Assembly (NCBI GenBank): GCA_043826355.1
Contig: JBDRQI010000005.1
Coordinates: forward strand, 84,879-148,878
Direction of reading: 5' to 3'
Source of the DNA: Candidatus Omnitrophota bacterium
Lineage (GTDB): Bacteria; Ratteibacteria; UBA8468; MWAK01
DNA: 64,000 nucleotides
The notes beneath the pieces are model-generated. The model saw nothing but the letters and a program-made list of their open reading frames with translations. It ran no database searches and was not told the DNA's origin. Below are positions 14,998 to 63,515 of this stretch, piece by piece. The position numbers and the translations under genes were made by a program. The first letter of the stretch is position 1. Each line of letters opens with the position of its first letter.

Positions 14998-15044
14998 TTA
15001 CAATAAAAACTCAAGCAAGCTTGGCAACTACAACAGCAATTCTT

Positions 15045-16418
15045 ATGAAATTCTATATCAGGACGTTCGGGTGCCAGATGAACCAGGCCGACAGCGCCTA
15101 CCTGTTCGGTCGCCTCATTGAGGCCGGGTACCGGAAGACGGAAGACCCGGAAGAGGCACAGGTCATCATCTTCAATACCTGCAGCGTCCGGCAACACGCA
15201 GAGGAGCGGCTCTTCCAAAACCTGAAAACGTTGCAGCCTCTGAAAAAGAAGAGGCCGGAGTTGATTATCGGCCTGATCGGTTGCATTCCGGCCCTGCGCC
15301 GGGAGATGCTGTTCCGCTCTTTCCCTTACCTTAATTTTCTGGCCGGTCCAGAAAGTCTGGCCATGATTCCGGACTTGATTTCCCGCAGTAAAAATGGCGC
15401 GCAGATTGCGGTCTTTGACTCCAAATTAGATTCCTATGCCTGCCCTCAAGCGCAAAGGAATATCAGCGCTTTTCTACCGATAATCATTGGCTGCGACAAC
15501 TTCTGCAGTTACTGCGTGGTACCACTTACCCGGGGCAGGGAAAAGAGCCGACCGGCCGAAGATATTCTGACAGAGGCGAAAAAAATGGTTTTCGGCGGCG
15601 TCAAAGAGATAATCCTCCTGGGTCAGAACGTCAATTCCTACCGGGAAACGACAGGGACGAGATTCCCGCTTACAACATGCGGGAATGACATCGTTTCGGG
15701 TCGGATAAATCCGCCCCCCGGAAATAAAGGGATCGAAATCGATTTTCCGGAACTCCTGTCCCGGATAGCCGGGCTATTCGGCATCTTGCGACTGGGTTTT
15801 ATGACCTCCCACCCCAAGGACGTCTCCCCGAAACTTTTTAAAGTAATCGCCGAACATTCAAGCATCTATCGCCACCTGCACCTCCCCTTGCAGAGCGGTT
15901 CCGACTCCATCCTGCAGACAATGAACCGCGGCTACACCGCCGCCCATTACCGGCAGAGAATGGGAGAAGCCAGGGAAATTGTTCCCGGGTTGTCGCTCAC
16001 TTCGGATGTCATCGCGGGATTTCCGGGCGAAACGGAAGATGACTTTAATAAAACCTTATCGTTAATTGAGGAAATACAATTTGATGACTTGTTTGCCTTT
16101 AAATATTCGGACCGCCCCAAAACTAAAGCCGAAAGACTGGGCGGCAAGATTCCGGAAAAGACGAAAGAGGAACGCTTGGCCAAACTCTGGAAACTGCAGG
16201 ACGGAATCTCCCTGAAAAAAAACCTGGAGATGAAAGGTAAAACTTGCGAAGTTCTCTTGCTGAGCGAGAGCTGGAAAAGACCGGGTTTCCTGATTGGCAA
16301 GACGGAAAATGGAAAGAAAATTCTCGTTTCGGAAAACGCAAAATCAGTCGGTTCTTTAGTTCGGGTTCAAATTACTTCGGTTGACCGCCGCCTGCTCTAC
16401 GGGGTTGCCGAAAAATAA
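15045..16418 (+). CDS. miaB: tRNA methylthiotransferase MiaB
   Basis: [22 protein letters not shown] radical SAM motif, [15 protein letters not shown]-terminal TRAM domain. Confidence 0.93.
15659..15717 (+). repeat. In-frame palindromic insertions in miaB
   Basis: GAGATTCCCGCTTACAACATGCGGGAATGACA (29/32 identical to the reverse complement of 23577-23608) plus GGGTCGGATAAATCCGCCCC. Confidence 0.8.
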
Positions 16419-20717: not shown

Positions 20718-20730
20718 AGTTTTGTAAAAC

Positions 20731-20799: not shown

Positions 20800-20815
20800 G
20801 TCTCTTTTAATCGCA

Positions 20816-25398: not shown

Positions 25399-25473
25399 TC
25401 CGGCGTAGCGCAACGGTAGCGCGGCTGGCTGTTAACCAGTAGGTTGTAGGTTCGAATCCTACCGCCGGAGCCA
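25399..25473 (+). tRNA. tRNA-Asn(GTT)
   Basis: TCCGGCG acceptor stem, CTGTTAA anticodon loop, GGTTCGAATCC T arm, encoded CCA. Confidence 0.96.
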
Positions 25474-25555
25474 CGTAAAATCCGCCTTCGGCGGATCACG
25501 TGGTCCCGTGATGATTCGCAGAATCATTTTACGGGACAATATATCAATTACAAGT

Positions 25556-25831
25556 ATGTATTATGTTTATATTCTGCGTAGCCTGAAAGATAACCGGTTT
25601 TACACCGGTTACACGGAAAACATCCAAAGAAGATTCAAGGAACACAATGCAGGTCAAGAAAAATCCACCAAATATCGCCTGCCTTTTGTCTTGGTCTATT
25701 TTGAAGCCTACACAGATAAACGGGATGCTCTCGGTAGAGAGGAATTCCTGAAAAGCGGTTCAGGTAAGAGATATTTGAAAAAACAACTCAAGAATTATCT
25801 GACTGAAAACGATGGGCTGAATTTAATATAG
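25556..25831 (+). CDS. Stand-alone GIY-YIG nuclease
   Basis: YYVYIL...FYTGYT.N...R..EHN.G...STK.R.P..LVYFE....DAL.RE..LKSG.G. Confidence 0.9.
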   Translation: MYYVYILRSLKDNRFYTGYTENIQRRFKEHNAGQEKSTKYRLPFVLVYFEAYTDKRDALGREEFLKSGSGKRYLKKQLKNYLTENDGLNLI

Positions 25832-25848
25832 TGAAAACCGAGCGGTAC

Positions 25849-25867
25849 CGAATCCTACCTCCGGAGC
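25849..25867 (+). repeat. Duplicated 3' end of tRNA-Asn (att-like)
   Basis: CGAATCCTACCTCCGGAGC vs tRNA 25453-25471 CGAATCCTACCGCCGGAGC (18/19). Confidence 0.8.
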
Positions 25868-26893
25868 AAGCCCAATAACCGCACTATTCCTACGTTTATG
25901 ATTGTACCCTGGTAGGACGTTCGAACCTTTTTCTAAAAACCCAAACTAAAATAGACCTATCCCAATTTTAAAATTGACTTTTCTTTGCGTAAGTAATAGA
26001 GTATCTATTATAAATAGAGGTGTAAAATGTTTAAAAAAACAGGATTCACCCTTATCGAACTCCTCGTCGTAATGGCAATTATATCAATTCTTGCCGCAAT
26101 GCTACTGCCGGCTTTAAGTAGCGCCAGGGAAAGTGCAAGACGAGTAAATTGTATTTTGGTAATTTGAAACAAATCGGCTTGGCGGTAGCGATGCGCGGAC
26201 AAGATGGCGTGGACTCACCTTCAAACCCTTTTGATTTTGCGACACCGTTTATAAGAATCGGCGCAGACCAATATACAGGACTTGGCCGTTTATATCCAAA
26301 CCGTACCAGCAATATAAGAATATTCAGCTGTCCTGGAAGTACCAAAGCAAAACCCGATGATGTTCAAAAAGCGCTTGATGGAACCGGAGATGTGGTTGGA
26401 AACTATAATTATCGAATAAAAACCGGTGGAACTACGCCACTTCCTACATTAGTTATTGCGATGAGTTATAATTGTAAAAGCCAAAACAGATATGACCATA
26501 CGGGAAAATGGGTATCCCTGTTATATTATGACGGAAGCGCGAGAGGCGTAAATAATTCTGACGGAAAATTGACAAACTTATCCGATACAGATGAGGAGTT
26601 TGAAAGAACTTTTTTAGAGGCGGGTACAAAGTAAAATGTCAATATTATGCGTTCAATCTATATTCCCTGTGTCGCCGAAACTATCAAAAACAGAGATACA
26701 GTGAGTGGCACGGTAGGATAAACTTTTACAATTAAGCCAAGCTGGCTTGCAGCGCCAAATCTGGTATGTAAATCGCCTCGTTTGACCGTTGAAGTATGGT
26801 TCTAACGTTGTCCACGATGCGGAGCTTTTAAGCCCAAGAACCGCACTATTACTACGTTTCTTATTGTACCCCAGGTAAGATGTTCGAACCTTT
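25868..26893 (+). repeat. 63/64-bp direct repeats flanking the prepilin-like gene
   Basis: Copies at 25868-25930 and 26830-26893; 7 mismatches and 1 gap. Confidence 0.8.
26027..26634 (+). pseudogene. Prepilin-type N-terminal / H-X9-DG-like protein (DUF1559-like), frameshifted
   Basis: [42 protein letters not shown] stops at 26167; GNLKQIGLA...H..W..LYYDG continues in another frame; removing 2 T from TGTATTTTGGTAAT restores CIGNLKQ. Confidence 0.8.
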
Positions 26894-29949: not shown

Positions 29950-30217
29950 GTTACCCCCTATTTTAGTCGGAAAATTATAGTATTTGACATACTCCATTTG
30001 CCCATCAAAAAGAAATATTTTAACCTGATTCCCTACTTTACTTACCATCATTTTACTCCGGTACATCTATCGTGTCAATTAAAAAATTAAAAAGCTCCAA
30101 ATTCTTATTCCTAAACACCCTAAAACTCCTGTTTTTAGATCTTACAGTCTTGGATAATTTTGCAAATGCGCCCCATTACCGTGTTGATTTTTAATTGGCG
30201 GGGATATTTGTTCTTTA

Positions 30218-31680
30218 TCATCCAGGCGCCGGACAAAGACCGCGTATCTTTTGCATGATGCTTTTCCAGAGATGTTCATTGATCGTTGCTTCCGCTAAAA
30301 GCAGATAGTAATACCGGGCATGCCTGATAAGCCTGCCGCCCATCTTTATCAGTTTTAACTGTATCGTCCTTAAGGACCAACTCCTTATCTTTTCCGGCAA
30401 GGCCAGCGTCCGGAAAATATTCCCCAGATTATATGCCATGATGAATAGTTTCAGCCGGATTTCGTTCTCCTTAAATCCCTGGCAACTAAGCCTGGTCCAG
30501 TTTAAGGCATATTTTCCTTCTTTTATCTCCGCCGGAGGCGGATCTGCCTCTGGCATGACACTGCTCGCAGGTGCCCCGGTGGTTGTAGAATTTTATTACC
30601 GCCTTATTATTCCATTTGAGACTGGTTACGATGTATCCTATCCTGGGAAACAGTTCTCCCTGATGGTGCTCCATCTTCGCTACTATTCTCCGCTCTTTTT
30701 CCCAGGCGGCAGCACGATACTGGAAACTGACATATTTTACCACCGGTTGCTTTCCGGGTCTGCCCACCGACCGCTTTGCATATGGCGCCACCAACTCTCG
30801 TAACTTCTCATTCTCTTTTATCCGCACCGTATAGTCTATTCCCAGTTCTTCGCATAATTTATACAGACCCGGTATGGCAAAGGCGGCATCTCCCCGTACC
30901 TTTATGTTGATTCCTTTTTCGGCGTAAGACCTCAATATCGGCTCCAGGAATTCCTGCCATCCATCTGCGCTATGCACATTACCCGGCCTTAGTTTTACCT
31001 TGAGACAGTCACCGTACTGGTTGAATACCAATAATGGGTGGTAACACCTTGAAAGAAAATGTCCGTTATAACTTGACCCTTCCTGTTCCCCGTACACCGG
31101 GCTCTCGGAACTGTCTATGTACAAGATTATTTCCTTCATACCTCGTACTGAATCTACCTTTTTTTGTCCATTGCTTCAGTATCTCGTCCAGATTGTTCGG
31201 ATTATCTCCCTCCAGCAATATCTCTTTCTCAAACCTGCCTACGGTTGTTTCTCCGGCGCCGGTCTTTGCCAGGGCGCGATTTCCGATTACCGCTCTCATG
31301 CCAGGGTCTTTCCTCAAGCCTTCAGCATCGTTGGTGTCTTCGTATCCTCCCAGGCGTGAATAGACACTCTGCCGCAGTAATCCCTCCATCTCACGCTGGA
31401 TGTTTTTGCCGTGCCGCTTGTCTTCCAGATATTCCCCGGCGATTTTTGTTAATCCTAATTGTTCGTCCATCTCTCTTATCGCTACCAATCCTCCATCAGA
31501 TGTTACCTGGGTTCCTCTGAATCCGATCTTCAGTTTTTGATTAAAGCCTACCCGGAAATAGCTGTTTTTACTTTCACCCATTAGGTATCTCCTTTTTTTC
31601 GTCTGTTTCCAGCTATATTATAGACGCAAGAAAGGTCAAATTGTCCAGAGGAAATTCTGTCTTTATATGGGGAATGCGGG
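30218..31680 (-). mobile_element. IS1380-family transposase pseudogene in three pieces
   Basis: TSDGGL, GYEDTNDA..LR.DP, YNGHF..CYHPL, LRPGN, RGDAAF, YN.RGTCEQ, IKEGK, LIKMGGR; probable IRL CCCGCATTCCCCATATAA at 31663-31680. Confidence 0.88.
30528..30558 (-). repeat. 31-bp double-hairpin micro-element inserted in the IS1380 transposase
   Basis: TCATGCCAGAGGCAGATCCGCCTCCGGCGGA; removal restores CAG TGG ATA (EQWIKEGK). Confidence 0.85.
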
Positions 31681-36291: not shown

Positions 36292-36540
36292 TAAAAAGAA
36301 ATATTTTGGTCGAATACTCTGACCTTATATTTAAAACATACCGGGATCTTTTCAACGAAATGTCATATTTCCTTCAATTATAACGTTTCCCCTGTTTTAG
36401 AATCAATTTCTGAGAATCGCCTTATAAATAAAATAATTACGCCTGGATGATGGGGTGAATTTCGAAAGTAGGATCATTGCGAGGAACAAAGTGACGCGGC
36501 AATTCCCTGTTACTGTTTTTAACCAGGGTCTGGATTGCTC

Positions 36541-44519: not shown

Positions 44520-44576
44520 TAGGGGCTGCGAAAGGATAAAACCGCATAAATCAGCTCTATCCTTTCGCAGCCCCTA
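44520..44576. terminator. 19-bp perfect inverted repeat (terminator or processing stem)
   Basis: TAGGGGCTGCGAAAGGATA...TATCCTTTCGCAGCCCCTA just downstream of the small basic protein gene. Confidence 0.65.
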
Positions 44577-44737: not shown

Positions 44738-45031
44738 TTTTCCCACCTCCTTCTTAAGTGCTCTGGTGAAATTGTACCATGAATATAAAACAAAAGCAAC
44801 TCCAAGGCGTCGCCAGTTACCGCGGAAACCGGATGAAGAATACACTCAACCTGAAAAATTAAAAAGAAACATTTGCGCTAAACCTGTTTTTTTGCTAAAA
44901 TTATATAATATTGCAAGCGTAATCTGCGCAACAATCCCCGCATACTGCCTGCGGGAATGACATCTTTTTCCCGGGATTGCCGCACCCGCCTCTGGCGGAA
45001 TCGCAATAACCGCTTTTTATGAAGGGGGACA

Positions 45032-46357: not shown

Positions 46358-49300
46358 ATGGAAAAAATTACAACCTGGGAAAGTGAGATTAAAAAACTGG
46401 AAAACAGCCTGAAGAATTTCTGTGGGTTGGGTGATTTCAAGTTTAAACAGAACGTAACCGGCGCCGAAGACCCGGCCTTTGACGACCGGGACTGGGAAAT
46501 AAAAAAAGAGCCGAGATGGTCGTTGAAAAACGGTCCGGCTTATTTCCGAAAAGTATTGAGGTTTCCCAAAACCGTGGAGGGTATTCCGCTTTCCGGAAGT
46601 ATGGCAGAATTAAGTTTTGTCTTTCCCTCCGGCGTGGAAATTTTCTGGGACGGAAAATCATTATACCAGAATAAATTCTGGGCTGATATGATTGCCGCGG
46701 AACTGCCTTTGCCGGATAAGATAACGCCCGGAAAAACACACGTGTTGGTATTTAAAACGCCGGGCGGTGACGGCTTAGGAGTATTCGGGGGCTATTTTTC
46801 CCTGCCTTCAGTAGAAAAAGCCTTGTTCGAACTCACCACGGCCCTCTATCAGATAAGGTTTGCCGAAAAACTCCTGAAAAAGAGCCCGGGGCTTTCCCTG
46901 GAGAAAAGTTTTCAAAGAGCGGTTTCTCTGATAGCTTTGGATGTAATTCAGAAACGCAGATGGCCTGAAATATTCGCCAATCTCAAAGAAATTGAAAATG
47001 TCCTGGAGCCGTTTCGTTCCCTGGCCCGAAAATACCGGGTCCACCTAATCGGCCACAGCCACATCGACATGAATTGGCTGTGGAACTACCCGGACACCAT
47101 CAACACCTGCCTGCGCGACTTTGATACCGTCACCAAATTGATGGATGAATACCCGGATTTGACCTTTTCCCAGGACCAAACGCATATCTACCGGATTGTG
47201 GAGGAGCACAACCCAAAACTTTTTGCCCGAGTTAAAGAAAAGATTAAGGAGGGCCGCTGGGAGGTTACCGCCAACGCCTGGACGGAAGGGGACCTCAATA
47301 TGGCTGACGGCGAAGCGCTCTGCCGCCACATCACTTACTCCCGAAAATACGTCGGCGAACATTTCGGGGTAAAACCGGAAATAATGTGGTGTCCGGACAC
47401 GTTCGGACATCCGGTTACCATCCCGGCAATTCTTTCACACGCCGGGATTACGAATTATTTTTTCACAAGGGCAGGAGGCGGTTACCCCAGCGGTGAGTTT
47501 GCTTTCCCGCTTTTTACCTGGCAAAGCCCAAATGGCAACAAGGTATTGGCTTTTAACAGCGCTTACAGTAATTGCATCAACCCGGAAAACGCCATTTCCT
47601 GCGCGCTCAAATTCCAAAAAAAATACAACCTTTTTGAGAGCATGTTTGTTTACGGCGTGGGCGACCACGGCGGCGGACCGACCCGGAAAGACATTGAACG
47701 AAAAAAACGGATGGACCGAAAACCGGTAATGCCGAACCTGGTCTTTTCCACCACGCACCGGTTCTTTGATTTAGTGAGAAACAAAAAGAACTACCCAGTG
47801 GTTAAGAAAGAACTCAATTCCATCTTTGAGGGATGCTACACCACCCACTCCGATATCAAACAGGAAAACCGGGAATGCGAAAACAGCCTCCTGACCCTGG
47901 AGACAATTGTAGCTCTCGCCGGCCTCCTGGGCAAAGAATACCCGGCCAAAAAATTGGAAAGTTGGTGGCAAGACACTCTTTTCAACCAGTTCCACGATAT
48001 CTTTGACGGTTCGGCCATATCGGAATCGTACCAATATTCCAAAGGACTGGCGGATAAGGTTATCGCCGGCAATAAAGCATTGCTTGCAGAAAACCTTACC
48101 TTCATTTCCAAACAGGTGAATACTACCAAAGAAGGCATTCCTTTGGTAGTATTTAATTCTCTGGGCTGGAAAAGAAGCGGGGTGGTTGAGTTTGAATTAC
48201 CGGAGGGAACGGCCGGAAAAGAACTGCACGTCATTGACGGAAAAGGCAAACAAATGCCGGTTCAGGCTGCAGGTAAGAAATCCGCCCTCTTTTTGGCCGA
48301 AAGCATTCCTTCTTTCGGCTATAAAACATACTGGTTAAAAATCGGTTCCTGCAACCCTGCCCCCCCACCTGCACCTCTCCCCACAGGGGAAAGGGAGAAG
48401 GAAGGAATGTTCGAGACTTCACATTACCGGATTGAAATTGCCCCAGACAGCGGCGTCATCAGGCGGCTCTACGACAAAAAGAATGAGAGAGAGGTTTTGA
48501 GCGTCGGGCGTTCCGTCGGTGAAGACCGTTCTTCCTACTGGGCAGAAACCTGCGGCAACCTTCTGCAGGTCCTGCAGGAAAAACCTCACGGCATGTCTGC
48601 CTGGATTATCGGAAATATCGCGAGGATCGAAAACCTCCTTGACTTAGAGGAGTTCAAGGTAGTTGAATCCGGCCCGGTAAGAACTACCCTCTCCATTAAA
48701 AGGCGGTACCGGGAATCAATGATTGAACAAAAAATCACCCTTTATGCCGCACTGCCCTGGATAGATTTCGAAGTCATCGCAGACTGGCAGGAAAAAGGGT
48801 CTGACAAAGACGGCGTACCAATGCTCCGGGTGAATTTCCAGGCGGATTTTGACCGGCCCCTCGCGGAATTTGAAATCCCTTTCGGCTGGCAGGAACGACG
48901 TACCGAAGGAAAAGAGTTGCCGGCCCTTAAAGCCGTCTCTCTGGCCGAAAAAGGCTACCGGCTGGGTCTTTTAAACCGGGAGAAACACGGTTACCTCGTA
49001 AACGGAAAAAACCTCGGCCTGACACTTCTGCGCAACCCCTATGAACCGGATTCCCTGCCGGACAGCGGAACCCATTGCATCGGATACCGGCTCATTTTCG
49101 GCAAAATCAGCAAAGCGGAGATGAGCCGTCAGGCGGCTTCCTATAACCGGCTGTTGTCGGTTTGCCTGACGGACAATCACGGTGGTAAACTACCTCCGGA
49201 ACTCTCCTTACTGGACTTCCGTTCCGGAGACTGCGTACCCAGTTCCCTGCAAAAATCACTGGATGGAAAAAATCTAACGTTAAGATTTTATAACGTTTCG

Positions 49301-50808: not shown

Positions 50809-52644
50809 TCATCGTTCACCGTTCTTAAACGCGTTGGTGATGGGCAGGCGCCAATCCTTGCCAAAAGCACGACTGGTTATCTTGACACCGGGCGGCGCCT
50901 GGCGTCTTTTATATTCGTTCCGATCAACCAGCGCAATTGCCTTTCGCACCGTACCCATCTTGAAACCGCTGCCGGTTATCTCCGCCGGTGAAAGATTTTC
51001 CTCAATATAAGCGGCCAGAATCGGGTCCAGAATTTCATAATCCGGAAGCGTATCTACGTCTTTCTGGTTTGGCCGCAGTTCTGCGGAAGGCGGCCGTTTT
51101 ATGGTCCGTTCCGGTATAACCGGCTTCAGTTGGTTCCGGTATGCGGCCAACCGGTAGACCAGGGTTTTGGGAATATCCTTAAGGACCGCAAACCCGCCGG
51201 CCATATCTCCGTAAAGGGTACAGTAACCGGTGGCGATTTCACTCTTGTTTCCCGTAGTGAGGACCAGGTAGCCGAACTTGTTGGAAAAAGCCATAATGAT
51301 ATTGCCCCGAATACGCGCCTGGATATTTTCTTCGGTTATATCCGGTTTTACGCCGGTAAAACTATTCTTGAGAGTCTTCAGGTAGGCGTTAAAAACTTCC
51401 TTTATGGAAATTACGTGAAATTCAATCTCTAAATTGTTTGCCAGTTTTTGGGCGTCTATCCGGCTCATCTCCGCGGAAAACCGGCTGGGCATAAAGAGGC
51501 CGACCACCCGTTCTTTGCCCAGACTATCAACCGCGATAGCCGCAGTAAGAGCTGAGTCAATCCCGCCGGAGAGCCCGATAATTGCCTTTTTAAATCCGTT
51601 TTTATCCACGTAATCCCTGGTTCCAACAATCAGGGCCTGATATATCTCGGCCTCATCCGAAAGCCGCGGTTCAATTCGCGGTTTAATTACCGGAGGTTTG
51701 GACTCCCGCTTACTGCGCGCGGGAATGACATACGTTTTTGCAACGAAAGAATCGCAGGGGGCGGATTCATCCGCCCCGCGGGCCCCGTATAGGCGGCTGT
51801 TGCCTTTTACGGGGCGGGCGCGCCATGTCATGCCTGAGGCAGACCCGCCTCTCTCGCCTGAGGCGAGTGCGCCTCCGGTGCAAGCGGGAACGGCGCCCCG
51901 ACAAACGCTCTCCGGGTTAATATCTACAATAAGCAGGTCTTCGTCAAAAGATTTCGCCCTCGCCAAAACTTTACCTTCCGGGTTAAAGACCACGCTTTGA
52001 CCGTCAAAGACCAGTTCGTCCTGGCCGCCGACCAGATTAACATAAACCAGAAATGCTTTATACTCTACGGCCCGGTTGGATAGCATCTGCTCCCTGTATT
52101 CCACCTTGCCGAGCTGGTACGGCGAAGCCGAAATATTGATAACACATTGACTACCAGCCGCAACCTGCTGAAACGCCGGTCCGGCCGGATGCCAGATATC
52201 TTCGCAGATATTAACTCCAAAACAAAAACTTCCCAGGGAAAAAACCTTGTTTTCACGTCCGGATTCAAAATAACGCTTTTCGTCAAAAACACTGTAATTG
52301 GGGAGAAGATGTTTATGGTAAACCGCCCGGACCTTTCCGCCGGCAATGATTGCAGCCGCATTATAAAGGTTATTTTTAGACCCCTTAAGGTCAATGAACC
52401 CCAGAATCGCAGTTATTCCGACTGTTTTTTTCTCAATCTCCGCAAGACCTTTAAGATTAGCCTTTATAAAACTGGTCTTAAAGAGAAGGTCTTCCGGCGG
52501 GTAGCCGGTCAGGGCCATTTCCGGAAAAACAACCGTATCCACTCCGAATTTCCGGGCACGCTTTATACAATCGAAAATGCGAACCGCATTACCGGGGATG
52601 TCTCCCACCGTAACGTTTATCTGGGCCAGGCCGATTCTTACCAT
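50809..52644 (-). CDS. nadE: Glutamine-dependent NAD+ synthetase
   Basis: FPE..GYPPEDL, NICEDIW, LSGGIDSA, ENIQARIRG, TGNKSE. Confidence 0.95.
   Translation of the reverse strand: MVRIGLAQINVTVGDIPGNAVRIFDCIKRARKFGVDTVVFPEMALTGYPPEDLLFKTSFIKANLKGLAEIEKKTVGITAILGFIDLKGSKNNLYNAAAIIAGGKVRAVYHKHLLPNYSVFDEKRYFESGRENKVFSLGSFCFGVNICEDIWHPAGPAFQQVAAGSQCVINISASPYQLGKVEYREQMLSNRAVEYKAFLVYVNLVGGQDELVFDGQSVVFNPEGKVLARAKSFDEDLLIVDINPESVCRGAVPACTGGALASGERGGSASGMTWRARPVKGNSRLYGARGADESAPCDSFVAKTYVIPARSKRESKPPVIKPRIEPRLSDEAEIYQALIVGTRDYVDKNGFKKAIIGLSGGIDSALTAAIAVDSLGKERVVGLFMPSRFSAEMSRIDAQKLANNLEIEFHVISIKEVFNAYLKTLKNSFTGVKPDITEENIQARIRGNIIMAFSNKFGYLVLTTGNKSEIATGYCTLYGDMAGGFAVLKDIPKTLVYRLAAYRNQLKPVIPERTIKRPPSAELRPNQKDVDTLPDYEILDPILAAYIEENLSPAEITGSGFKMGTVRKAIALVDRNEYKRRQAPPGVKITSRAFGKDWRLPITNAFKNGER
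51699..51905. repeat. Stack of nested palindromic elements in the NadE interdomain linker
   Basis: Hairpins at 51700-51730, 51758-51777, 51782-51815 and 51828-51889 (with nested 51853-51883). Confidence 0.8.
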
Positions 52645-52720: not shown

Positions 52721-53992
52721 ATGGGATTATCTCTTTTGGGGTTAATTCTCCTTCTCGTTCTGTCGGCTTTTTTTTCCGCGGCCGAAACCTCACTTACTTC
52801 CTTAGGCAAGTTAAAAGTCAAAGCCCTTATTGATTTAGAAGGTCGCCGGGCTGAGGTCCTGAACCTCTGGTTGAAAAACCCGGCTCGTTTACTCACCACT
52901 ATCCTGATCGGCAACAACATCGTCAATGTTTCCGCCTCAGTTTTAGCCGCATATCTGGCCATTAAAGCCTGGGGGAACAAGGGTGTCGGTATCGCCACCG
53001 GCTTAATGACCTTCTTGATTCTGGTCTTTGCGGAGATTATTCCCAAGACCTTCGCCCGGCATCACTACGAAAAAGTAGCCCTAGTTATCATCTGGCCCTT
53101 GCTTTCTATTTCCTACCTTTTAAACCCGGTTGTCCGTTTTTTTGTACTCATATCTGAAGGCATTATTCGTCTCTTCGGCGGTCACCTTACTCCGGAGACC
53201 AGCCACATCAGCACGGAAGAGATCCGCACCTTGATTGATATCGGCGGAGAAGAAGGAGCCCTGGCCGAAGAAGAACGCGAAATGTTAAGCAGTGTAATCG
53301 AAATCCGGGACACGGCGGTGGGCAGTCTGATGACGCCCCGGATGGAAATAGCCGCCCTTCCGGAAGACGCTTCCGTAGCCGAGGCCTTTACCCTGATGAC
53401 CAAAGAGGGACACTCCCGGCTGCCGGTTTACCGGAACGATATGGACGATATCGTGGGCATCGTAGATTCCCGACAGATACTTTCCCACATCGCTGAAGGT
53501 GAAAAAACGGTTCTCCTGCGCCAGATAATGAGGCCGGCTTTCTTTGTGCCGGAAATGATGAATGTTTCCAGCCTTTTAAAAGAGTTGCGGCGCCACAAAT
53601 CACACATGGCAATCGTAATGGATGAATACGGCGGGACCGAAGGACTGGTTACGCTGCACGACCTCATTGAGGAGATTATCGGCGAACTCCCAACTGAATA
53701 CGAGGAGACCGCAGATTACCAGAAGGTCAACGAAAAAACTTACCGCATCAAAGCCGAGATGGAGATTGAAAAAGTCAACGAATTATTAAACATCAATCTT
53801 GAGGAAGACGACGATAACGCGGAAACCCTGGCCGGATTTGTCCTGAAACATCTGGGGCACTTCCCGGTTTCCGGCGAGCAGTTTCGCTACCAGAACTACC
53901 TTTTCACGGTGGAAAAAGCGGACGAACGCAGCATTTCCCTCCTTTTAGTGCAAAATTTGACCCCCCGGACGCCGCCACATGGAAATACCTGA
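52721..53992 (+). CDS. HlyC/CorC (CNNM) family transporter
   Basis: SAFFSAAE, ILIGNNIVN, EIIPK, CBS pair, DEYGGTEG.VT..D..EEIIGE. Confidence 0.92.
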   Translation: MGLSLLGLILLLVLSAFFSAAETSLTSLGKLKVKALIDLEGRRAEVLNLWLKNPARLLTTILIGNNIVNVSASVLAAYLAIKAWGNKGVGIATGLMTFLILVFAEIIPKTFARHHYEKVALVIIWPLLSISYLLNPVVRFFVLISEGIIRLFGGHLTPETSHISTEEIRTLIDIGGEEGALAEEEREMLSSVIEIRDTAVGSLMTPRMEIAALPEDASVAEAFTLMTKEGHSRLPVYRNDMDDIVGIVDSRQILSHIAEGEKTVLLRQIMRPAFFVPEMMNVSSLLKELRRHKSHMAIVMDEYGGTEGLVTLHDLIEEIIGELPTEYEETADYQKVNEKTYRIKAEMEIEKVNELLNINLEEDDDNAETLAGFVLKHLGHFPVSGEQFRYQNYLFTVEKADERSISLLLVQNLTPRTPPHGNT

Positions 53993-55922
53993 GAAAAACC
54001 TTGAAAAAACCGATGCCGGACAGGTCTATACCTGCCGAAAAGCGGCTTCGGCCTGCAGGCAAGCCGCCGAAGAAATTGCCTCTTTTTTGAATGCCCGCAT
54101 TACAAAAACCGGCATCGTTTACCGTGTGCTCTTTTTCAACCGGCGTCACCTTTTTTTTGACGATGCCGGGCGTACCTATACCGTCCACTTTTATCAAAAA
54201 GCAAAGGGTTGCTTTGTGTTGGTAGAACCGACCAAAAAAATCAAACAAGACGGGCCGGTCTTGCTGGCTCAGAAATTTCTGGTGAGGCAAAGAAGTATAA
54301 TTATTTATACCGATTTTAACCTTATCGCCGAATACTTATCCCACTTCCTGCGAAAAAGGGGCTACCCGGCCGGAAAAGTAGTCTGGAAAGAAGTAATTAC
54401 CGTTTTTCGAATTAAGGCTGGCAGGGGAACCGTAACCGCCGGTCCCTTTTCGGCCCTGGTTCAAACCAGTTTCATCCGCAACCGTTTCTCGGCCCGGCTG
54501 CAGGATAAAGATGAAAAAAACCCACATTTCTGCAGTCCCCACAACCAGTACGTTTTTACTTTCCGGAACAGGTTGCTGGTCAAAAGAAACGCCGTAAAAC
54601 TGGATAACCTTCTTCTTTCCTACGCCGAAAAAGAAATAAAAAGCGCCAGCATCAACCCGGTCGTTCTTCTCAAAAAAACCATCTATGGTTTAAGGAGTCC
54701 AAACCTGCGCGCCTTCTATTCCGATGACGGCCTGATACCGGAAGCAAAACACCTCATGAACTTTGTTGTCTTAATCTACCTGGCTATCGGCACCATTAAC
54801 GCCAGCGTCTTTGTCCGGGTGGCGGAACGCCTGAAAGGAAACACCTGGTACACCCTGGCGGCCGGCGCCCTGGTATTCTTAAGGGTGCCGGCGGAAATAT
54901 TCAACATGCGTCGTTCCCTCAAGATTACCCGGAACCTGCCGGGTTCCCGGATTCAAAAAAACGAAGATTCGGAAGGGTTCCGCGTCGCTTACGAAACAAA
55001 ACCCTTTCGTTCCTGGCGTAATTTTGAACGCGGTTACACCGAACTATTCCGCGGCACCGAATACCTGCCGGAAAAGATTGAAAAATACCGGCTGGCCAAA
55101 CCGAACCTTTACCGGCTGGTTACGGAAGGCAAAAAAGAAACGGTTGCTGCGTTTTTAAAGAACGGACTGGATTTGAATGAAGAAGCAATCAGCTCTTTGC
55201 TTCCCCTTGCCAAACAACTGCAACCCCTGGACCGGGATAAAATCAAAACGGTTTTCCGCAACCGGATTGAACGGTTAAAAGAAGAAGGTCTTCTGCTGGA
55301 AAGTGAATGGCCCGGCCTGCTGGAATTTGTCAGTCGGACCTTTCCGGACCTGCTGGAAAGAGATACCGTAGCCGGTGCCTATAAATCTCTGAAAAACACC
55401 TTAAAACGCGCGGAACGTCCGCCGAAACGCGCGGAACTTTTTTCCCTGGTTGACAAGTGCTATCGGGAACTGATTCCGTTCCGAAGAGCTGAATTTATGT
55501 TGCACATTTCCCTCTTTATGATCGGCTACGGCGCTACCTATTCACCGGACATCCCGACTTTCGCCTTCGCCATCTATTACCTATTTAGCGGAGTGATGGT
55601 TCAACTTATCGCCTCCGGATACGAGCGCTTAAGCATGCCGGTCTGGATGCAGTATGTTTTCCGGGAAATGGAAAACGACCCGGCCATCGCTTCTGCTTCG
55701 GATACCTGGAATGAATTCAGCAGCCAGCAAACCCGCCTGTTGACCATCTTTTCTTCGCTGGGCCTGATTTTGGGCATTTCCGGCCGGCTCCTGGCAAAAG
55801 TCACTCACAATATTTCCTGGTTCGGGGTGGATACCATGGCAATACTCCTTTTCCTGGTCGCCATCCGGGAATGGTTCCGGTTCTACCAGGGATTGCAAAA
55901 GAGATTACGGTCGGAGGGATAG
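53979..55922 (+). CDS. Hypothetical multi-pass membrane protein
   Basis: 647-aa ORF overlapping the end of corC; several hydrophobic segments; no motif recognised. Confidence 0.65.
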   Translation: MEIPEKNLEKTDAGQVYTCRKAASACRQAAEEIASFLNARITKTGIVYRVLFFNRRHLFFDDAGRTYTVHFYQKAKGCFVLVEPTKKIKQDGPVLLAQKFLVRQRSIIIYTDFNLIAEYLSHFLRKRGYPAGKVVWKEVITVFRIKAGRGTVTAGPFSALVQTSFIRNRFSARLQDKDEKNPHFCSPHNQYVFTFRNRLLVKRNAVKLDNLLLSYAEKEIKSASINPVVLLKKTIYGLRSPNLRAFYSDDGLIPEAKHLMNFVVLIYLAIGTINASVFVRVAERLKGNTWYTLAAGALVFLRVPAEIFNMRRSLKITRNLPGSRIQKNEDSEGFRVAYETKPFRSWRNFERGYTELFRGTEYLPEKIEKYRLAKPNLYRLVTEGKKETVAAFLKNGLDLNEEAISSLLPLAKQLQPLDRDKIKTVFRNRIERLKEEGLLLESEWPGLLEFVSRTFPDLLERDTVAGAYKSLKNTLKRAERPPKRAELFSLVDKCYRELIPFRRAEFMLHISLFMIGYGATYSPDIPTFAFAIYYLFSGVMVQLIASGYERLSMPVWMQYVFREMENDPAIASASDTWNEFSSQQTRLLTIFSSLGLILGISGRLLAKVTHNISWFGVDTMAILLFLVAIREWFRFYQGLQKRLRSEG

Positions 55923-55945
55923 AGAATTCTAAAAAGGAGACCGGG

Positions 55946-58288
55946 ATGAATTTATACTCCAGGTTGCGGCAAGGATTAAAGGAGAAGGAAAAGAACGGCC
56001 TGTTGAAATCGGAAAGGATGCTGACCTCGTCACAGGGCACGGAGATAAAAGTCAGCGGAATATCCGAACCGGTGGTCAATTTCTGTTCCAATAATTACCT
56101 CGGCCTGGCAAACCACCCTTTGGTTCTTTCCGCAGCGCGTAAAGCGCTGGAGATTTACGGATTCGGCCTCTCTTCGGTGCGTTTTATTTGCGGCACCCAG
56201 ACCATTCATAAACAATTGGAGGAACGTCTGGCCGATTTTTTGGGTATGGAGGATTGCCTGCTCTATACCTCCTGTTTCGACGCCAACGGTGGTCTGTTTG
56301 AAAACATGCTGTCCGAAAACGACGCGATTATCAGCGCCCGGCTTAACCACGCCAGTTTAATTGATGGCATACGCCTTACTAAAACGACGCGCTTTACCTA
56401 CCGGGAAGACAGCCCGGAAGACCTCAAGCGAATCCTTTCCAGTGTAAAAACGGACGGCGTAATCCTGGTGGTGACCGATGGCGTTTTCAGTATGGAAGGA
56501 ACCCTGGCGCCGCTGGATAAAATTGTTCCGCTATGCCGCAGCTACGGTGCTCTGCTGGTAGTCGACGATTCCCACGCTACCGGCTTTATCGGCAACCACG
56601 GCCGCGGAACCCCGGAACACTTCGGGATACAGGCGGATATCCTCACCGGAACATTTGGAAAGACGCTGGGCGGCGGCAGCGGCGGTTATACCGCCGGCAA
56701 GCGGAAATTAGTCGCCTGGCTGCGCAATACCTCCCGTCCCTACCTTTTCTCCAACTCCCTGCCGCCGGCGCTGGCGGCCGGAGCGATTGCGGCGCTGGAT
56801 ATCATCTCTTCCGAAGAAGGCGCCGAACTGCGCCGTAAACTGAGAGAAAACACCGCGTACTTCCGTTCATCAATGCGGCAGGCCGGATTTTCCATCCCGG
56901 ACGGCAATCATCCGATCGTCCCGGTGATGGTGGGCGACGCCGATGCGGCTTCCCGGATGGCAAACCGGATATTGGAACTCGGCATTTACGTGATTGGGTT
57001 CAGTTACCCGGTGGTACCGAAAGATAAGGCCCGCATCCGGGTCCAGATTTCCGCGCTCCACACCCGGCCGCAGATTGACCGGGCGGTCAGCGCTTTCGCC
57101 AAAACCGGTAAAGAGGCCGGCTTAATCGCAAAGGGAACTGCGCCGGTTTTGGTGAAAACGGACCGCGGTCTGCCGAAAGCGATGCGCGCTTGGGTTTATT
57201 ATAACAAGGTCCAGCCGGACGGCGGCCACGTCCGCCTGGAACGGGTACCGGTACCCAAACTCAGCCCCGGCGAACTGCTGCTGAAGGTTGTCGGCGTCTC
57301 TGTTTGCGGCACCGACGAAGATCTGTTCCACGGCAAATTTTCCGAAGTGTACGATGGCATCATACCCGGCCACGAGATATTCGGAGAAATTGTGGGCCGG
57401 GGATCAAACATCCGCGGCTTCGACATAGGACAGAAGATTGTAGCAGAATCACACTATCAGATTCCCGGTTATATTGAGGAAGGCGTTATCGGCCTCTGGG
57501 GCCCCAAAATTCTTACCGGGGGATACCTGCGGCCGTTGAATGGCGGTTACGCGGAATATGTAGCCATAACCAACTACTGCGCTCATCTTGTTCCGAAAAC
57601 CCTGGACTCATCAGACTTTTTTCCATCCTTGCTGGAAGGTATCGGCAACGACTGCCTGATCGCCAAGTACCTTTTTGACCAGGGATTGCTGGGCACGGTC
57701 GCGGTCGTCGGTTGCGGCCCCCACGGGCTCTTTACCCAGATGTTCCTGAAGCATTTCGGCGTCAAGCGCCTGGCCGCATTTGAAATTGACCGGAAACGAA
57801 TGGAACTGGCCAAAGAATTCGGCGCCAACATAGTTTTTGATTCACTGGCAAAAGACCTTGATAAACAAGTGAGCGATTTTACCGCAGGCAAAGGATTTGA
57901 TGCGGTTATTGATATCGCCGGCGGCCATGAGACAGTACTGAAGACGTGTTTCAAATACGTAATGGACCGCGGCACCCTGGTTCTCTTCGGACTTTACGGC
58001 AACGAAAAGGTCAAATTGGAGGGAGTGCCGATTAACGATATAATCTTCGGCATGCGCGACCTGGAAGTAAAATACGAAAACAAATACATTCACGTGAAAG
58101 GCATCACGGGCCGGGAAGGAATCTGGGATTATTTAATTGATACCGTTGCGGTTTCCCGGAAACTCCGTCAAAAGATAATGAAGCCGGTTACCGTTATGGG
58201 GCCCTTAGATAATCTGGGCCGGGACACCCTGAAAATAAACCGGAAAAAGGTTATGAAACGGGCCTACACCGCCTTCGGAACTCATTAA
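55946..58288 (+). CDS. kbl: Fusion of glycine C-acetyltransferase (Kbl) and an MDR Zn-dehydrogenase (Tdh-like)
   Basis: NFCSNNYLGL, SVRFICGT, LNHASLIDG, DDSHATG, GTFGKTLGG, ARIRVQ; then VCGTD, GHE, GCGPHG; AAGGAG RBS. Confidence 0.88.
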   Translation: MNLYSRLRQGLKEKEKNGLLKSERMLTSSQGTEIKVSGISEPVVNFCSNNYLGLANHPLVLSAARKALEIYGFGLSSVRFICGTQTIHKQLEERLADFLGMEDCLLYTSCFDANGGLFENMLSENDAIISARLNHASLIDGIRLTKTTRFTYREDSPEDLKRILSSVKTDGVILVVTDGVFSMEGTLAPLDKIVPLCRSYGALLVVDDSHATGFIGNHGRGTPEHFGIQADILTGTFGKTLGGGSGGYTAGKRKLVAWLRNTSRPYLFSNSLPPALAAGAIAALDIISSEEGAELRRKLRENTAYFRSSMRQAGFSIPDGNHPIVPVMVGDADAASRMANRILELGIYVIGFSYPVVPKDKARIRVQISALHTRPQIDRAVSAFAKTGKEAGLIAKGTAPVLVKTDRGLPKAMRAWVYYNKVQPDGGHVRLERVPVPKLSPGELLLKVVGVSVCGTDEDLFHGKFSEVYDGIIPGHEIFGEIVGRGSNIRGFDIGQKIVAESHYQIPGYIEEGVIGLWGPKILTGGYLRPLNGGYAEYVAITNYCAHLVPKTLDSSDFFPSLLEGIGNDCLIAKYLFDQGLLGTVAVVGCGPHGLFTQMFLKHFGVKRLAAFEIDRKRMELAKEFGANIVFDSLAKDLDKQVSDFTAGKGFDAVIDIAGGHETVLKTCFKYVMDRGTLVLFGLYGNEKVKLEGVPINDIIFGMRDLEVKYENKYIHVKGITGREGIWDYLIDTVAVSRKLRQKIMKPVTVMGPLDNLGRDTLKINRKKVMKRAYTAFGTH

Positions 58289-59180: not shown

Positions 59181-62100
59181 TCAGGTCCGGGTAAAGGAGC
59201 GGAGCAGGTTTGCGGTCTCCTCCGGAACCGGTCCGAAACGATCGGCCATCTCCTGCGCCATCTTTTCCGCATCCGGGGAAAGACCGAAAAGCCGGCGGTA
59301 CAGGGAGAGCCGTACCGTCTCCGACGAAACATAGTTTTCCGGAATGAAACCCTTAATTTTGGCGGCTGCAATCTCGCGCTTTACTTTCCGGCCGGTCAGT
59401 TCCGCCACCGCCTCCCGGAATAACTGGTTGTAAAGGAAGAAGCCGACCGCTTCAATAAACCCGTGCTGTTCCTTGCCCAGGATGTTTCCGGCCCCCCGTA
59501 TCTCCAGGTCAGCCAGGGCAAGGCGCAGACCGCTGCCCAATTTGGTAAACTCCTCTATCGCCTTCAAACGCTTCTGGGCGTCGTCGGTCAGGACCTTTCT
59601 TGGCTCGTAAAGAAGATAGCAATAAGCCTGGGTCTTGTACCGGCCTACCCGGCCCCGCAACTGGTAAAGGTCAGCCAGGCCGAAGTTCTGACTGTCGTTA
59701 ATGATGATGGTGTTGGCGTTGGGAATATCCAGCCCCGATTCCACGATTGAAGTGGCCACCAAAATATCTATCTTCTGGTCCAGAAAACGGTCCATCACGC
59801 CAAAGAGTTCCCCTTCGTCCATCTGGCCGTGGCTTATCCCGACCTCCGCTTCCGGCAGGAGGCGTCTCAGGCGTTCGGCGGCCCCGGCGATATTTTCCAC
59901 CCGGTTGTGGATAAAGAAGACCTGGCCGGACCGCTCCATCTCGCGGCGGCAGGCGGTCGCAATCAGGTCTTCCCGGTACGGCGTCAGGAGGGTAAGCACC
60001 GCCTGCCTTCCGGCCGGCGGCGTTTCAATCACGGAAAGGTCGCGGATTCCGGTAATGGATAGTTGCAGCGTCCGGGGAATGGGCGTGGCGGAAAGGGTCA
60101 GGATGTCGACGTCCGGCCAGCGCGCCCTCAGCCGCTCCTTGTGGGTTACGCCGAAACGCTGCTCTTCGTCAACAATCCACATCCCCAAATTTTTAAAACG
60201 GATATCGGCGCTCAGGAGGCGGTGGGTACCGACAACGATATCGACCCTGCCTTCGGCCATCTCCGCAATCACCGCCTTCTGCTCCGGCTTGCTGCGGAAC
60301 CGGGAAAGGTTCTCAATCCGCACCGGGAAATCAGCGAATCGTTCGCCGAAGGTCCGCAAATGCTGTTCCGCCAGAATGGTTGTGGGACAAAGCAAAGCAA
60401 CCTGCCGGCCCGCTTCCACCGCCTTAAAAGCAGCCCGCATCGCCACCTCGGTCTTTCCGTAACCCACGTCCCCGCAGACCAGCCGGTCCATCGGTTTCGA
60501 TGATTGGAGGTCTTTCTTAACCTCCTTGATTGCGGTTAACTGGTCGGGTGTTTCCTCGTAGATAAACTCGGCTTCAAACTCAGATTGCCAGGGGGAGTCC
60601 GCCGGATAAACAAAACCCTGCACCCCTTTCCGCTGCCGGTAAATCTTCAGAAGGTCGCTGGCCAGGTCCCGCACTCCTTCGGTAACCCGCTCCCGGGTCT
60701 TTATCCAGGCCCGGCTGCCCAACCGGGAAAGTGTTGGCGGCTTCTCCACTCCGGCGTAACGGTGCACCAGGTTAATCTGGCTGACCGGCACAAAGAGCAG
60801 GATGCCGTCCGCATATTCAATCTTGATTACCTCCGCTTCCTTCTTTTCAAAAAGGACTTTGCCGATGCCCAGAAACTTTCCGATGCCTTCGTTCAGATGG
60901 ACCACGTAGTCCCCGGGTGAAATCTCCTCCGGGCCGGAAATGGCTGCGGACTGGAAGAACGGTTTTACGCCGGGCCGGAAGGAACGGTAGCGTCCGAATA
61001 TTTCCGAATCGGCGAGAAAGGTAACATCAATCTCCGGAAAGGAAAAACCCTCTGAAAGGTACCCGATTTCAATCCGGCTGTCCGGATGCAGGGTCAACCC
61101 CCTTTCGACGATAACTTCCTTAAACCGTTTTGCCTGGCTCTCGTTCCGGCAGAATATATGCAGCGGCTTCCGGTTCCAAGCGTCGGTCACAAGAGGTCCT
61201 TTGAGGGTAAACCGGGTTACGGGTTCGGCGCGGAAAAAAAAATACCCCCCCTCCCCTCCCCCTCGAGGGGGTAGGAAGGGTAGGGGCGACGGTAGAAAAG
61301 AGAAGTTGATTTTGGGAAAGGGAACTTCCCGTAGTTTTTGCAGGGTAAGAAAATTACCTTTTTCCGCAGGGAGATATTGCTGAAACTTAATCTCTTCCTT
61401 CTCTATTTCTAATGGATGGTAAAAGATCAGGATGGTGCCGGCCGGAAAATATTCCAGAAACGAAGCGGGCTTCCCCCGGGCAAACAACTCTTTTTCGGAT
61501 ATCGGCAGGATAGACGCAACGGAGACCGGTTTCCGGCTCAACTGGCTGACCGGGTCAAAATACCGCAGGGAAATAACTTCTGCGCCGGAGAATTCAACCC
61601 GCAGCGGCTCCGGCCGGCCTGACGAGAAAATGTCTACAATCCCGCCCCTGACCGCGAACTGACCCGGTTCCACCACCAGTTCCGACCGCTGATATCCTGC
61701 GTCGGAAATTTGCGCCAGGAATTCCCGGCGGTCCAGGAATTGCTTGAGTTTAAGGCTGAAAACATATTTTTTCAGGAAAGAAGGTGAGACGGTCGGCGGA
61801 ATAATCGCCTGAATCGGGGTTACCACTAAAAACGGTTCTGCCCGGTTGGTCAGGCTGTTAAGAACCACCAGCCGCTGGCTCTCCACCTCTGCCGACGGAT
61901 TCAGTTCTTCGTTAGGCAAAACTTCCGTGAAGGGAAAAAGACCGACCCCGGCGGAAGGAAGAAAAGTCTGCAGGTCACCAAAGGCGCGGCTGGCGCTTTC
62001 CACTCCGGCGGTAATAAACAGTAATCTTTTCACGCCGGGCAACAGGGAAAAGAAGGCAGCCGCTATCAGATTTGCAGAAGAACCGACCAGGCCGGAAAGC

Positions 62101-62192: not shown

Positions 62193-62204
62193 GCGAAAAG
62201 TGGT

Positions 62205-62274
62205 GTCATTCTGAGCCGTTCTTGCGAAGAATCTAAATTAAAATATGAGATCCTTCGCTATCGCTCAGGATGAC
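62205..62274. repeat. REP doublet overlapping the glyA stop
   Basis: GTCATTCTGAGCCGTTCTTGCGAAGAATC and GAGATCCTTCGCTATCGCTCAGGATGAC. Confidence 0.8.
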
Positions 62275-63515
62275 AGACAATTACGAGAATCCAACGGAAA
62301 TTTTCGGCAGAGGCCTTTTACCCGCTTCTTGACGTCCGAAATCTTAACCGGGTCTGCCCGGAAAGTAATCGCGTCCGAAATCAGCCCGGCGATCGTCTCC
62401 ATCTGGCCTTCCTTCATTCCACGGCTGGTTATTGCCGGAGTTCCCAAACGCAGGCCGCTTGTCCTGGTAGCATCCAGCGGGTCAAAGGGAACCATGTTCT
62501 TGTTGGTGGAAATACCGATGCCTTCCAGTAATTTTTCCGCTTCCGCGCCGGTAATATTCTTATTAGCCAGGTTAACCAGAAGCAGGTGGTTATCGGTGCC
62601 CCCGGTTACCAACCTGAAACCCTTTTTCTTCAAACTTTCAGCCAACGAACGGCTGTTTTTGATAACCTGAGCCTGGTAATCCCGGAACTCCGGCTTTTGC
62701 GCTTCTTTGAAAGCAACCGCCTTTGCGGCAATGACGTGCATCAGCGGACCGCCCTGGATACCGGGAAATATCATCCGGTTCAAAAGATGTCCGTGCTCCT
62801 TGCCTGCCAGAATAAGACCGCCCCTTGGTCCGCGCAGGGTCTTATGAGTCGTAGAAGTAATAAAATGAGCGAAGCCGACCGGGCTGGGGTGAAGACCGGT
62901 GACCACCAGACCGGCAATGTGCGCGATGTCAGCCATCAGGTATGCATTCACACTGTCGGCAATCTTCCGGAAAACCGCAAAGTCAATTACCCGGGGGTAG
63001 GAACTCGCCCCGCAAATAATCATCCCGGGCTTAACTTTTTTTACCTGTCCGGCAATTTCGTCGTAATCCAGAAGTTCTGTTTTGCGATTAACCGTGTATG
63101 GGTGGTTTTCAAAAAGGCAACCGGAGAAACTTACGGGAGCGCCGTGGCTCAAATGGCCGCCGGAATCAAGACTCATTCCCATAATCCGGTCGCCGGTCTT
63201 AAGAATGGAAAGAAGAACCGCCATATTGGCCTGAGTGCCGGAATGGGGTTGAACATTGGCGTAATCGACCTTAAATAACCGCTTGGCGCGTTCCACCGCC
63301 AGTCTCTCGATTTCGTCCACAAACTCACAGCCGCCGTAGTAGCGTTTACCCGGATAACCTTCCGCATATTTGTTGGTCAGGACCGAACCGGTCGCCTCCA
63401 GGACCGCTTCACTGACCACATTCTCCGAAGCAATTAGTTCCAGGGTAAAGGCGAGCCGCTCCTCTTCCTTTTCAATCCAACCGGAAACTTCCGGGTCTGT
63501 TTGTTTAATTTTCAT
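62265..63515 (-). CDS. glyA: Serine hydroxymethyltransferase
   Basis: LIASEN, NKYAEGYPG.RYYGG, GGHLSHG, TTHKTLRGPRGG. Confidence 0.97.
   Translation of the reverse strand: MKIKQTDPEVSGWIEKEEERLAFTLELIASENVVSEAVLEATGSVLTNKYAEGYPGKRYYGGCEFVDEIERLAVERAKRLFKVDYANVQPHSGTQANMAVLLSILKTGDRIMGMSLDSGGHLSHGAPVSFSGCLFENHPYTVNRKTELLDYDEIAGQVKKVKPGMIICGASSYPRVIDFAVFRKIADSVNAYLMADIAHIAGLVVTGLHPSPVGFAHFITSTTHKTLRGPRGGLILAGKEHGHLLNRMIFPGIQGGPLMHVIAAKAVAFKEAQKPEFRDYQAQVIKNSRSLAESLKKKGFRLVTGGTDNHLLLVNLANKNITGAEAEKLLEGIGISTNKNMVPFDPLDATRTSGLRLGTPAITSRGMKEGQMETIAGLISDAITFRADPVKISDVKKRVKGLCRKFPLDSRNCLSS

Follow-up and report, generated by a model that had tools for sequence, protein, structure and literature searches.

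The nadE gene and its product

The locus described here lies within a window of 64,000 nt, the whole stretch of DNA that was analyzed, and is carried by nadE, the gene for a glutamine-dependent NAD+ synthetase (Table 1). The encoded protein scored 741 bits against the NCBIfam model PRK13981, whose cutoff is 479, and its top named matches were from Ca. Ratteibacteria and Ca. Omnitrophota. A nitrilase-type glutaminase domain (aa 3-247) and a synthetase domain (aa 336-583) were identified in one frame, and both were 78-85% identical to those of the seven closest relatives, with the catalytic residues retained. The residues E42, K111, and C147 and the SGG-x-DS motif at aa 359-364, which we take from knowledge of the family to be catalytic (the former as a Glu-Lys-Cys triad), showed no variation in 20 aligned proteins. 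Judged by its sequence, nadE is an intact gene for a glutamine-dependent enzyme.

The peptide quoted in a first-pass annotation of this DNA as the interdomain linker corresponds to NadE residues 247-315, and its frame is open, as had been reported there. In an AF2 model, which that annotation had proposed, both domains adopted the NadE fold and pLDDT was below 50 over aa 250-301. In solved homologs the interdomain joint measures about 6, 10, and 42 residues, and its length is therefore free. The available text of PMC6946656 states that the linker influences domain placement and that the enzyme also takes free ammonia, and a mild effect of inserts is therefore possible. The 33-aa extension specific to this genome is probably disordered and near neutral for what is probably a working enzyme. 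A strand was predicted at aa 303-307, where it overlaps the first residues encoded by element A and occupies the position of an ancestral strand; with a confidence of about 67, and an AF2 input alignment that may have induced it, this prediction hints at an exaptation of A-encoded residues.

Table 1. Features of the nadE linker and of related repeats in the window
Feature	Position	Strand	Remarks
nadE, glutamine-dependent NAD+ synthetase	50809..52644	-	open, 611 aa
Element A, TGTC-tagged palindrome of CGTC-1/dRS3/NTS type	51700..51730	-	9-nt loop; aa 306-315
24-nt non-repeat spacer	51731..51754	-	common to relatives; aa 298-305
REP-like GTAG head-head doublet, second half	51754..51781	-	hairpin H at 51758-51777; tag decayed by one base
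Element F, 34-nt palindrome in hinge of REP doublet	51782..51815	-	specific to this genome at this site
4 extra nt beside F	51816..51819	-	candidate parse: 2-nt F junction duplication + 2-nt GC slippage
8-nt remnant, right arm of REP first hairpin	51820..51827	-	shifted frame
Outer B, in loop of REP first hairpin	51828-51851 + 51883-51888	+	30 nt as present
Inner 31-nt B-like unit within outer B	51852..51882	+	one base lost at junction
REP-like doublet, first arm	51889..51903	-	tag decayed by one base, synonymous Arg codon position
B control copy, clean 31-nt insertion in IS1380 transposase	30528..30558	-	frameshifts already broken gene
miaB in-frame insert, A + H-type hairpin	15660..15720	+	adds about 23 aa to loop relative to PDB 7MJV
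Candidate mobiliser cassette after tRNA-Asn	25481..25870	+	hairpins + GIY-YIG gene
B-type half hairpin of cassette	25481-25495	+	
F-type palindrome of cassette	25502-25537	+	
Small GIY-YIG gene	25556-25831	+	91 aa, PF01541, E 1e-16
Decayed copy of tRNA 3' end	about 25846-25870	+	

Palindromic units of the linker

About 183 of the 207 nt at 51699..51905 consist of palindromic repeats. Along the gene, the first arm of the REP-like doublet is followed by outer B with its inner unit, the 8-nt remnant, the four extra nucleotides, F, H, the spacer, and A. The first-pass annotation had described a nested stack of palindromes, whose elements were recovered here to within 1 nt of its positions, and the nesting itself was upheld; its composition was revised in that B plus the inner unit measures 61 nt instead of 62 and F comes with four extra nucleotides. 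Elements H and F, which had been placed alongside the nested units, turned out to be part of them: the REP doublet has H as its second half and F within its hinge, and the nesting is deeper than first described. The view of F as a repeat family in the window was not borne out, as no sequence copy of at least 68% identity was found in the 64 kb, and the only relative was an architectural sibling with the same ends at 25502-25537.

The units differ in how they are represented elsewhere. Element A has three good copies in other parts of the window (24-26 of 31 nt) and a weaker fourth; its TGTC tag is present in all five aligned copies, and the stem of the nadE copy has one mismatch. The REP doublet has stems of 7 and 8 bp in a dimer layout, with both GTAG tags off by one base. 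Outer B agrees at 26 positions with the 31-nt copy in the IS1380 transposase, including 22 of the first 24 nt, where the best of 100 shuffles reached 18. The inner unit matches the same copy in register at 22 of 31 positions, and no second copy of it was found in the 64-kb window. B can be folded as one long hairpin or as two small ones; only the latter fold places the inner unit in a loop.

The linker strand (216 nt) folds at -109 kcal/mol (z -3.9), which none of 200 shuffles equaled. Segments covering the linker ranked 1st and 3rd of 912 by raw fold energy, and 11th and 12th after GC correction. Among the single units, H and F were equaled by none of 200 shuffles and A and the inner unit by four, and a hairpin in the spacer was not significant (32 of 200 shuffles folded as well). 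A strict hairpin scan recovered only H within the linker, so that most of the units must be imperfect. No NCBIfam model matched the linker peptide at E values up to 1, and no Rfam family matched the linker RNA, four tRNAs being the only matches obtained. A known peptide family was also sought by profile search and dismissed, the two matches both being unrelated repeat proteins. Among plasmid sequences, B gave 18 weak matches, the best with an E value of 0.4.

Relatives and the age of the layers

Relatives were compared by protein and back-translation, so that their DNA layers are deduced from proteins. Linker length was obtained for 118 of 120 full-length matches, of which 115 fell between 46 and 58 aa; the outliers were 24 aa (P0008), 40 aa, and 85 aa, the last being the present gene. 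The eight proteins P0001-P0008 formed a clade with a support of 100/98. None of its eight members carries the basic linker motif, which was found outside the clade in 87 linkers (HDPRRRK in many), with a close variant in 21 and a degenerate form in two. In an AF2 model of P0010, which has the ancestral-type linker, two short helices were predicted along with a strand at 266-268. The distribution suggests that the repeats replaced the ancestral linker and were not merely added to it.

Ordering the insertions by aligning NadE from relatives, as had been proposed, proved workable at the protein level and separated an older layer, A with the doublet, from 99 nt that came later. Element A is common to six of the seven closest full-length relatives: its back-translation matched 25-28 of 30 positions in P0002-P0005, P0007, and P0008, whereas the 105 distant linkers reached 24 at most. 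The match in P0003 is marginal and represents an independent A copy. The doublet matched 37-39 of 42 positions in P0002, P0004, and P0005, with a maximum of 32 in the distant linkers, and the peptides of the relatives are compatible with intact GTAG tags. By this comparison element A is the oldest layer, and both it and the 51-nt REP doublet predate the other inserts, are in frame, and occur in relatives. The part specific to this genome amounts to only 99 nt (33 aa), made up of 61 nt (B with the inner B-like unit) and 38 nt (F with the four extra nucleotides) that lie 8 nt apart; this layer is known from one contig, its sequence cluster having one member.

Additional variation was observed within the clade. 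In P0003, F-type ends matched at 20 of 21 positions against a maximum of 18, and their starting point coincides with the junction where the P0002 doublet begins; the linker site has probably been struck more than once. P0004 and P0005 differ from P0001 and P0002 by paired non-synonymous changes on both arms of H (S..D versus A..A), fitting either a different family variant or hairpin self-correction. P0006 is without repeats yet nested in the clade, and a tree with P0006 outside was not rejected (p-AU 0.31). A further clade fragment, P0208, carries element A on a 1.3-kb contig and is uninformative about intermediate alleles. Visual inspection pointed to a candidate independent palindrome in the P0011 linker, with match counts of 29/36 against a background maximum of 28 and 28/40 against 31.

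A linker-focused protein search for intermediate alleles returned seven matches among 494 candidates, all already known, and no split gene of the clade stood out in 120 of 2661 short matches, five of which were read. A genome scan for DNA loci yielded at least 80 distant nadE loci, with a best identity of 59% among the matches listed, and a motif scan of those 80 found scattered palindromes only, including one nested case. This case, L031 at about 8930-8985 of a Planctomycetales MAG, consists of a B-type double hairpin within a CGTC-type element, the same nesting habit in another phylum.

Reading frame and its repair

That a single 31-nt insert shifts the frame had been stated in the first-pass annotation, and the clean 31-nt B in the IS1380 transposase agrees with it. 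At this site 34 nt take the place of a single codon in an intact homolog. The insert can be placed in either of two registers 1 nt apart but its length is certain, and no target-site duplication accompanies the insertion. The transposase gene (30221-31581, minus strand) is broken twice, by a frameshift near 31050 and by B at 30528-30558. Compensation was indeed needed for the nadE inserts, but for only the 99 new of the 207 nt, A and the doublet being older and in frame. To the two routes envisaged earlier, compensating insertions or a pre-assembled composite, a third can be added in which small indels beside each insert keep the gene open save for one +1/+2 pair.

The sequence of P0002 through the doublet is CRGAIHGARGADKSAPY. 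When both 51828-51888 (61 nt) and 51782-51819 (38 nt) were removed in silico, the product aligned to P0002 without gaps, and when one insert alone was removed, a stop appeared at aa 259 or 280. The intervening 51820-51827 are read as T-W-R here and P0002 has H-G-A; this difference directly shows that the frame was shifted locally and then repaired. Boundaries of 62 and 34 nt also left the frame open but lost the H-G-A match, and 61 and 38 nt were preferred. Read in frame, the 30-nt outer B meets a stop at aa 262, hence B must have been read in the +1 frame and compensated within a few codons downstream by +2. A stop-free linker is by itself weak evidence, given that 16% of shuffled 210-nt linkers were open.

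Under a candidate parse of the 38 nt as 36+2, an inferred split beside which others fit, and with the inner unit at net 30, all states are open save B31 alone and the GC slip alone. A path that is open throughout leads from the base state to the addition of F36, then of B31 with GC, and then of inner30. For F, a duplication of 2 or 6 nt is just one of the possible parses. On the frames as read here, one +1/+2 pair is unavoidable. The only ATG, GTG, or TTG codon among aa 236-335 is Met272, within B; re-initiation of the synthetase at this codon was considered and rejected, as it is out of frame in broken intermediates.

Related repeats and a candidate mobiliser

At the sequence level, in-frame palindromes in this window are not limited to nadE. 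The insert in miaB (15021-16418, plus strand) has H just upstream of A and in A's orientation, as in nadE. Besides this, C-/G-rich, palindrome-like stretches that are candidates for in-frame inserts were noted in mfd (about 61250-61290), in an alpha-mannosidase gene (48355-48400), and at the 3' end of glgA (262-310), where they read as Pro/Gly-rich peptides; for mfd and alpha-mannosidase the candidate sites fall outside the PDB alignments.

The region 25399-25870 (plus strand) comprises a tRNA-Asn gene and the features listed in Table 1, with the B-type half unit in a hairpin loop, and it has the appearance of a small cassette that integrated at the tRNA. The GIY-YIG product is presumably more like the SLX1-like group than the cd10448 clade of Ssn nucleases, and five plasmid relatives were found, all below 60% identity. 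The nearest copy of A lies about 2 kb away, at 23577. By analogy with the nuclease SsnA of the Ssn system, the cassette at this one locus is a candidate mobiliser of the nadE inserts.

Proposed history of the stack and its alternatives

The history to which we give slightly better than even weight is one of imprecise insertions into a tolerant, disordered linker, kept only where a small neighboring indel brought the frame back; the same weight covers jointly the origin of the +1/+2 pair in a single imprecise event, which is favored over conversion or a separate rescue. The linker would have been a tolerant landing site, colonized stepwise by selfish short palindromes. The loops and hinges of their hairpins may draw in further insertions, the junctions would be imprecise, and purifying selection would retain only alleles with a net length of 3n. 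In the most economical parse the inner unit would add a net 30 nt (31-1), F would add 36 (34+2), and B would add 33, composed of 31 and a 2-nt GC slip 6-8 nt away that would bulge the REP arm and may have arisen in the B repair event itself or soon after. The mobilizing enzyme would likely be a single-strand hairpin nuclease, for which a RAYT-type HUH or a small GIY-YIG enzyme are candidates only.

This stepwise history is favored by the gap-free match to P0002 after both removals and the stops after either, the open states along the path under the parse, the clean 31-nt B in the dead IS1380, the linker of pLDDT below 50 with its free joint length, the F-type insert at the same junction in P0003, and the second in-frame insert in miaB. 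Against it stand the lack of an intermediate allele in the linker-focused and short-match searches, the non-unique parse, the single contig, the protein-only comparison, the repeat-free P0006 within the clade, and the result that a Pfam scan of 57 window ORFs, with 15 of the 71 small ORFs included, showed no Y1/RAYT gene.

As an alternative, the composite may have been built at a neutral intergenic REP doublet and copied to nadE by one gene conversion, with only a 3n donor surviving, an account that we regard as unlikely though not far-fetched. One conversion tract would cover both late inserts, as they lie wholly inside the doublet and 8 nt apart; the doublet variant of P0004 and P0005 would fit the exchange of whole elements, and a broken intermediate would be unnecessary. 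However, a donor, a copy of the inner unit, and a copy of F were all absent from the 64-kb window, and the doublet retains its own point decay and agrees with the P0002 variant. A broken intermediate is central to a further account, which appears still less probable: a +1 insertion would have transiently disrupted nadE in a lineage that survived by salvage, leaky frameshifting, or extra chromosome copies, until the frame was regained through a later event, either F with its 38 nt or the GC slip. Consistent with such a phase, the blocks of 61 and 38 nt lie at distinct sites and either one breaks the gene, and B is known from IS1380 to insert at 31 nt without repair; yet the synthetase domain would have had no in-frame start, Met272 being out of frame before compensation, and the domains, at 78-85% identity to the seven closest relatives, have not decayed, so any broken phase would have been short.

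Two other explanations are very improbable. Selection of the hairpins as an RNA element, acting in interdomain ribosome pausing or mRNA processing, would agree with the strong fold and with stems that are better conserved than loops, at the peptide level, across relatives. It is disfavored by the absence of an Rfam match, by relatives with different elements or almost none (the 24-aa linker of P0008), and by the 110 of 118 measured linkers that fall outside the repeat-bearing clade; family variants would explain the paired arm changes equally well, and the miaB copy has a hybrid arm. An assembly artefact in the 99-nt layer, which has hardly any probability in our estimate, is suggested by the single contig and by a cluster without a second sequence, but the inserts are diverged from the other members of their families, the window contains no identical source for them, their flanks align gap-free to independent orthologs, and the neighboring genes are intact.

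The stepwise history could also be extended to a broader proposal, which is doubtful as a whole. Palindrome families would swap at one junction as through a revolving door, and most relatives would keep a linker of close to 50 aa; the ancestral beta-strand packing on the enzyme would be replaced by the A-encoded V-I-P; junction indels would routinely rescue units that are not 3n; and B and F would be spread by small tRNA-anchored GIY-YIG cassettes instead of RAYTs. If true, a core enzyme would owe one of its structural parts to selfish repeats, and a direct test would become feasible for the mobiliser of palindromes with and without a TGTC tag.

Comparison with known systems

In-frame coding palindromes have been in print since 2000. 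In the available text of Di Nocera et al. (2013; PMC3733652), GTAG/CGTC elements are reported in frame within real genes of many species, including the PVC member Opitutus terrae, and where elements occur in groups they contribute 43-82 aa to the protein (81 aa in DnaE2 of S. wittichii); linkers and loops are proposed there to tolerate the elements. Element A shares the features of CGTC-1, an unpaired CGTC/TGTC tag, an AT-opening stem, and a short tail, and both yield VIPA-type peptides. In contrast, the loop is 4-5 nt as described there, 4 nt in CGTC-1 with some variants, and 9 nt in element A, which is a CGTC-1-like variant and not CGTC-1. The entries given in that text are single elements, dimers, or groups with one family per row, whereas the nadE stack nests four families. 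Neither four-family nesting nor a frameshift-repair history appears in it, no NAD synthetase was among its five 'nad' matches, and B and F are outside the families that it describes.

Rickettsia palindromic elements (RPEs) are likewise palindromic repeats fused in frame in conserved genes, and an RPE-bearing Gmk was tested and found active, which implies that such inserts are near neutral, according to the portions available of PMC2229807 and PMC10969869. RPE-1-type elements are described there as 105-146 bp long with one conserved peptide, unlike the nadE units, which are 31-51 nt, mostly not 3n, nested, and without an NCBIfam match. MITEs have terminal inverted repeats with a target-site duplication, and B in IS1380 lacks such a duplication. 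For REPtrons/RAYT and BIME mosaics, mixed repeat clusters are placed in intergenic DNA in the text seen of PMC3733652. The GTAG-like head-head doublet in nadE resembles a REP-type dimer, with stems of 7 and 8 bp against the 6-13 bp given for GTAG REPs, but the nadE mosaic is translated, both of its GTAG tags are decayed, and no RAYT was among the window ORFs scanned.

A parallel for a mobiliser is the Ssn system (Chenal et al., 2025; PMC11893778), where, in the text available, SsnA cuts single-stranded DNA just upstream of the NTS hairpin. Element A resembles the NTS consensus, and the later nadE inserts all lie upstream of A. Both Ssn and this window have a small single-domain GIY-YIG gene beside hairpin repeats, and the present gene, at 91 aa, fits the Ssn size of about 90-100 aa. 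Ssn genes are flanked by NTS/SRM-type hairpins, whereas the gene in the window is flanked by B/F-type hairpins and tRNA direct repeats, not by A. Ssn is a cleavage system as presented there, and insertion of repeats by it is not demonstrated in that text.

In-frame palindromes are therefore already known, from RPEs and from the clusters of 43-82 aa in the text available of Di Nocera et al. (2013). What is new here is four-family nesting with visible frame repair, together with a candidate mobiliser, the GIY-YIG gene beside B/F-type hairpins. A full-text literature search, outside of which most subscription papers fall, gave no report of nested multi-family palindromes with frame repair, nor of such repeats in Ratteibacteria/Omnitrophota, and no 'palindrom' match was obtained in the text available of the Omnitrophota preprint 10.64898/2026.06.07.730766. 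The nadE locus works like the RPE and Di Nocera cases, as an unusually deep and datable stack, and extends RPE-like coding palindromes to Ratteibacteria/Omnitrophota. Its layers are dated by orthologs, the dead IS1380 gives the unselected insert size, and the shifted 8-nt stretch shows the repair, making the linker a readable record of selfish non-coding hairpins turning into protein in a core metabolic enzyme. It is also a hot spot at which population reads could capture insertions and frame rescues as they occur.

Other features of the window

More tagged palindromes and B-type hairpins were observed at 20730-20800, 62200-62275, 36470-36510, 44930-45010, 13765-13790, 7190-7220, and 9430-9455, intergenic or at gene ends and some of them paired or nested. 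For example, a B-type hairpin at 44974-45010 lies in the loop of another element. A long palindrome with 21-nt arms was found at 44520-44576, in the segment with the strongest GC-corrected fold. Additionally, a 31-nt repeat at 10182 recurs at 32531, and a remnant of an integrase-core (rve) transposase at 10144-11616 lies beside a HicA/HicB pair.

Among the remaining genes, a 647-aa ORF at 53979-55922 (plus strand) had no Pfam match, and a 541-aa protein encoded at 28441-30066 (minus strand) contains about seven internal repeats of 52-57 aa with weak BNR matches. An 805-aa fusion of Kbl (glycine C-acetyltransferase) with a threonine-dehydrogenase-like domain is encoded at 55871-58288 on the plus strand.
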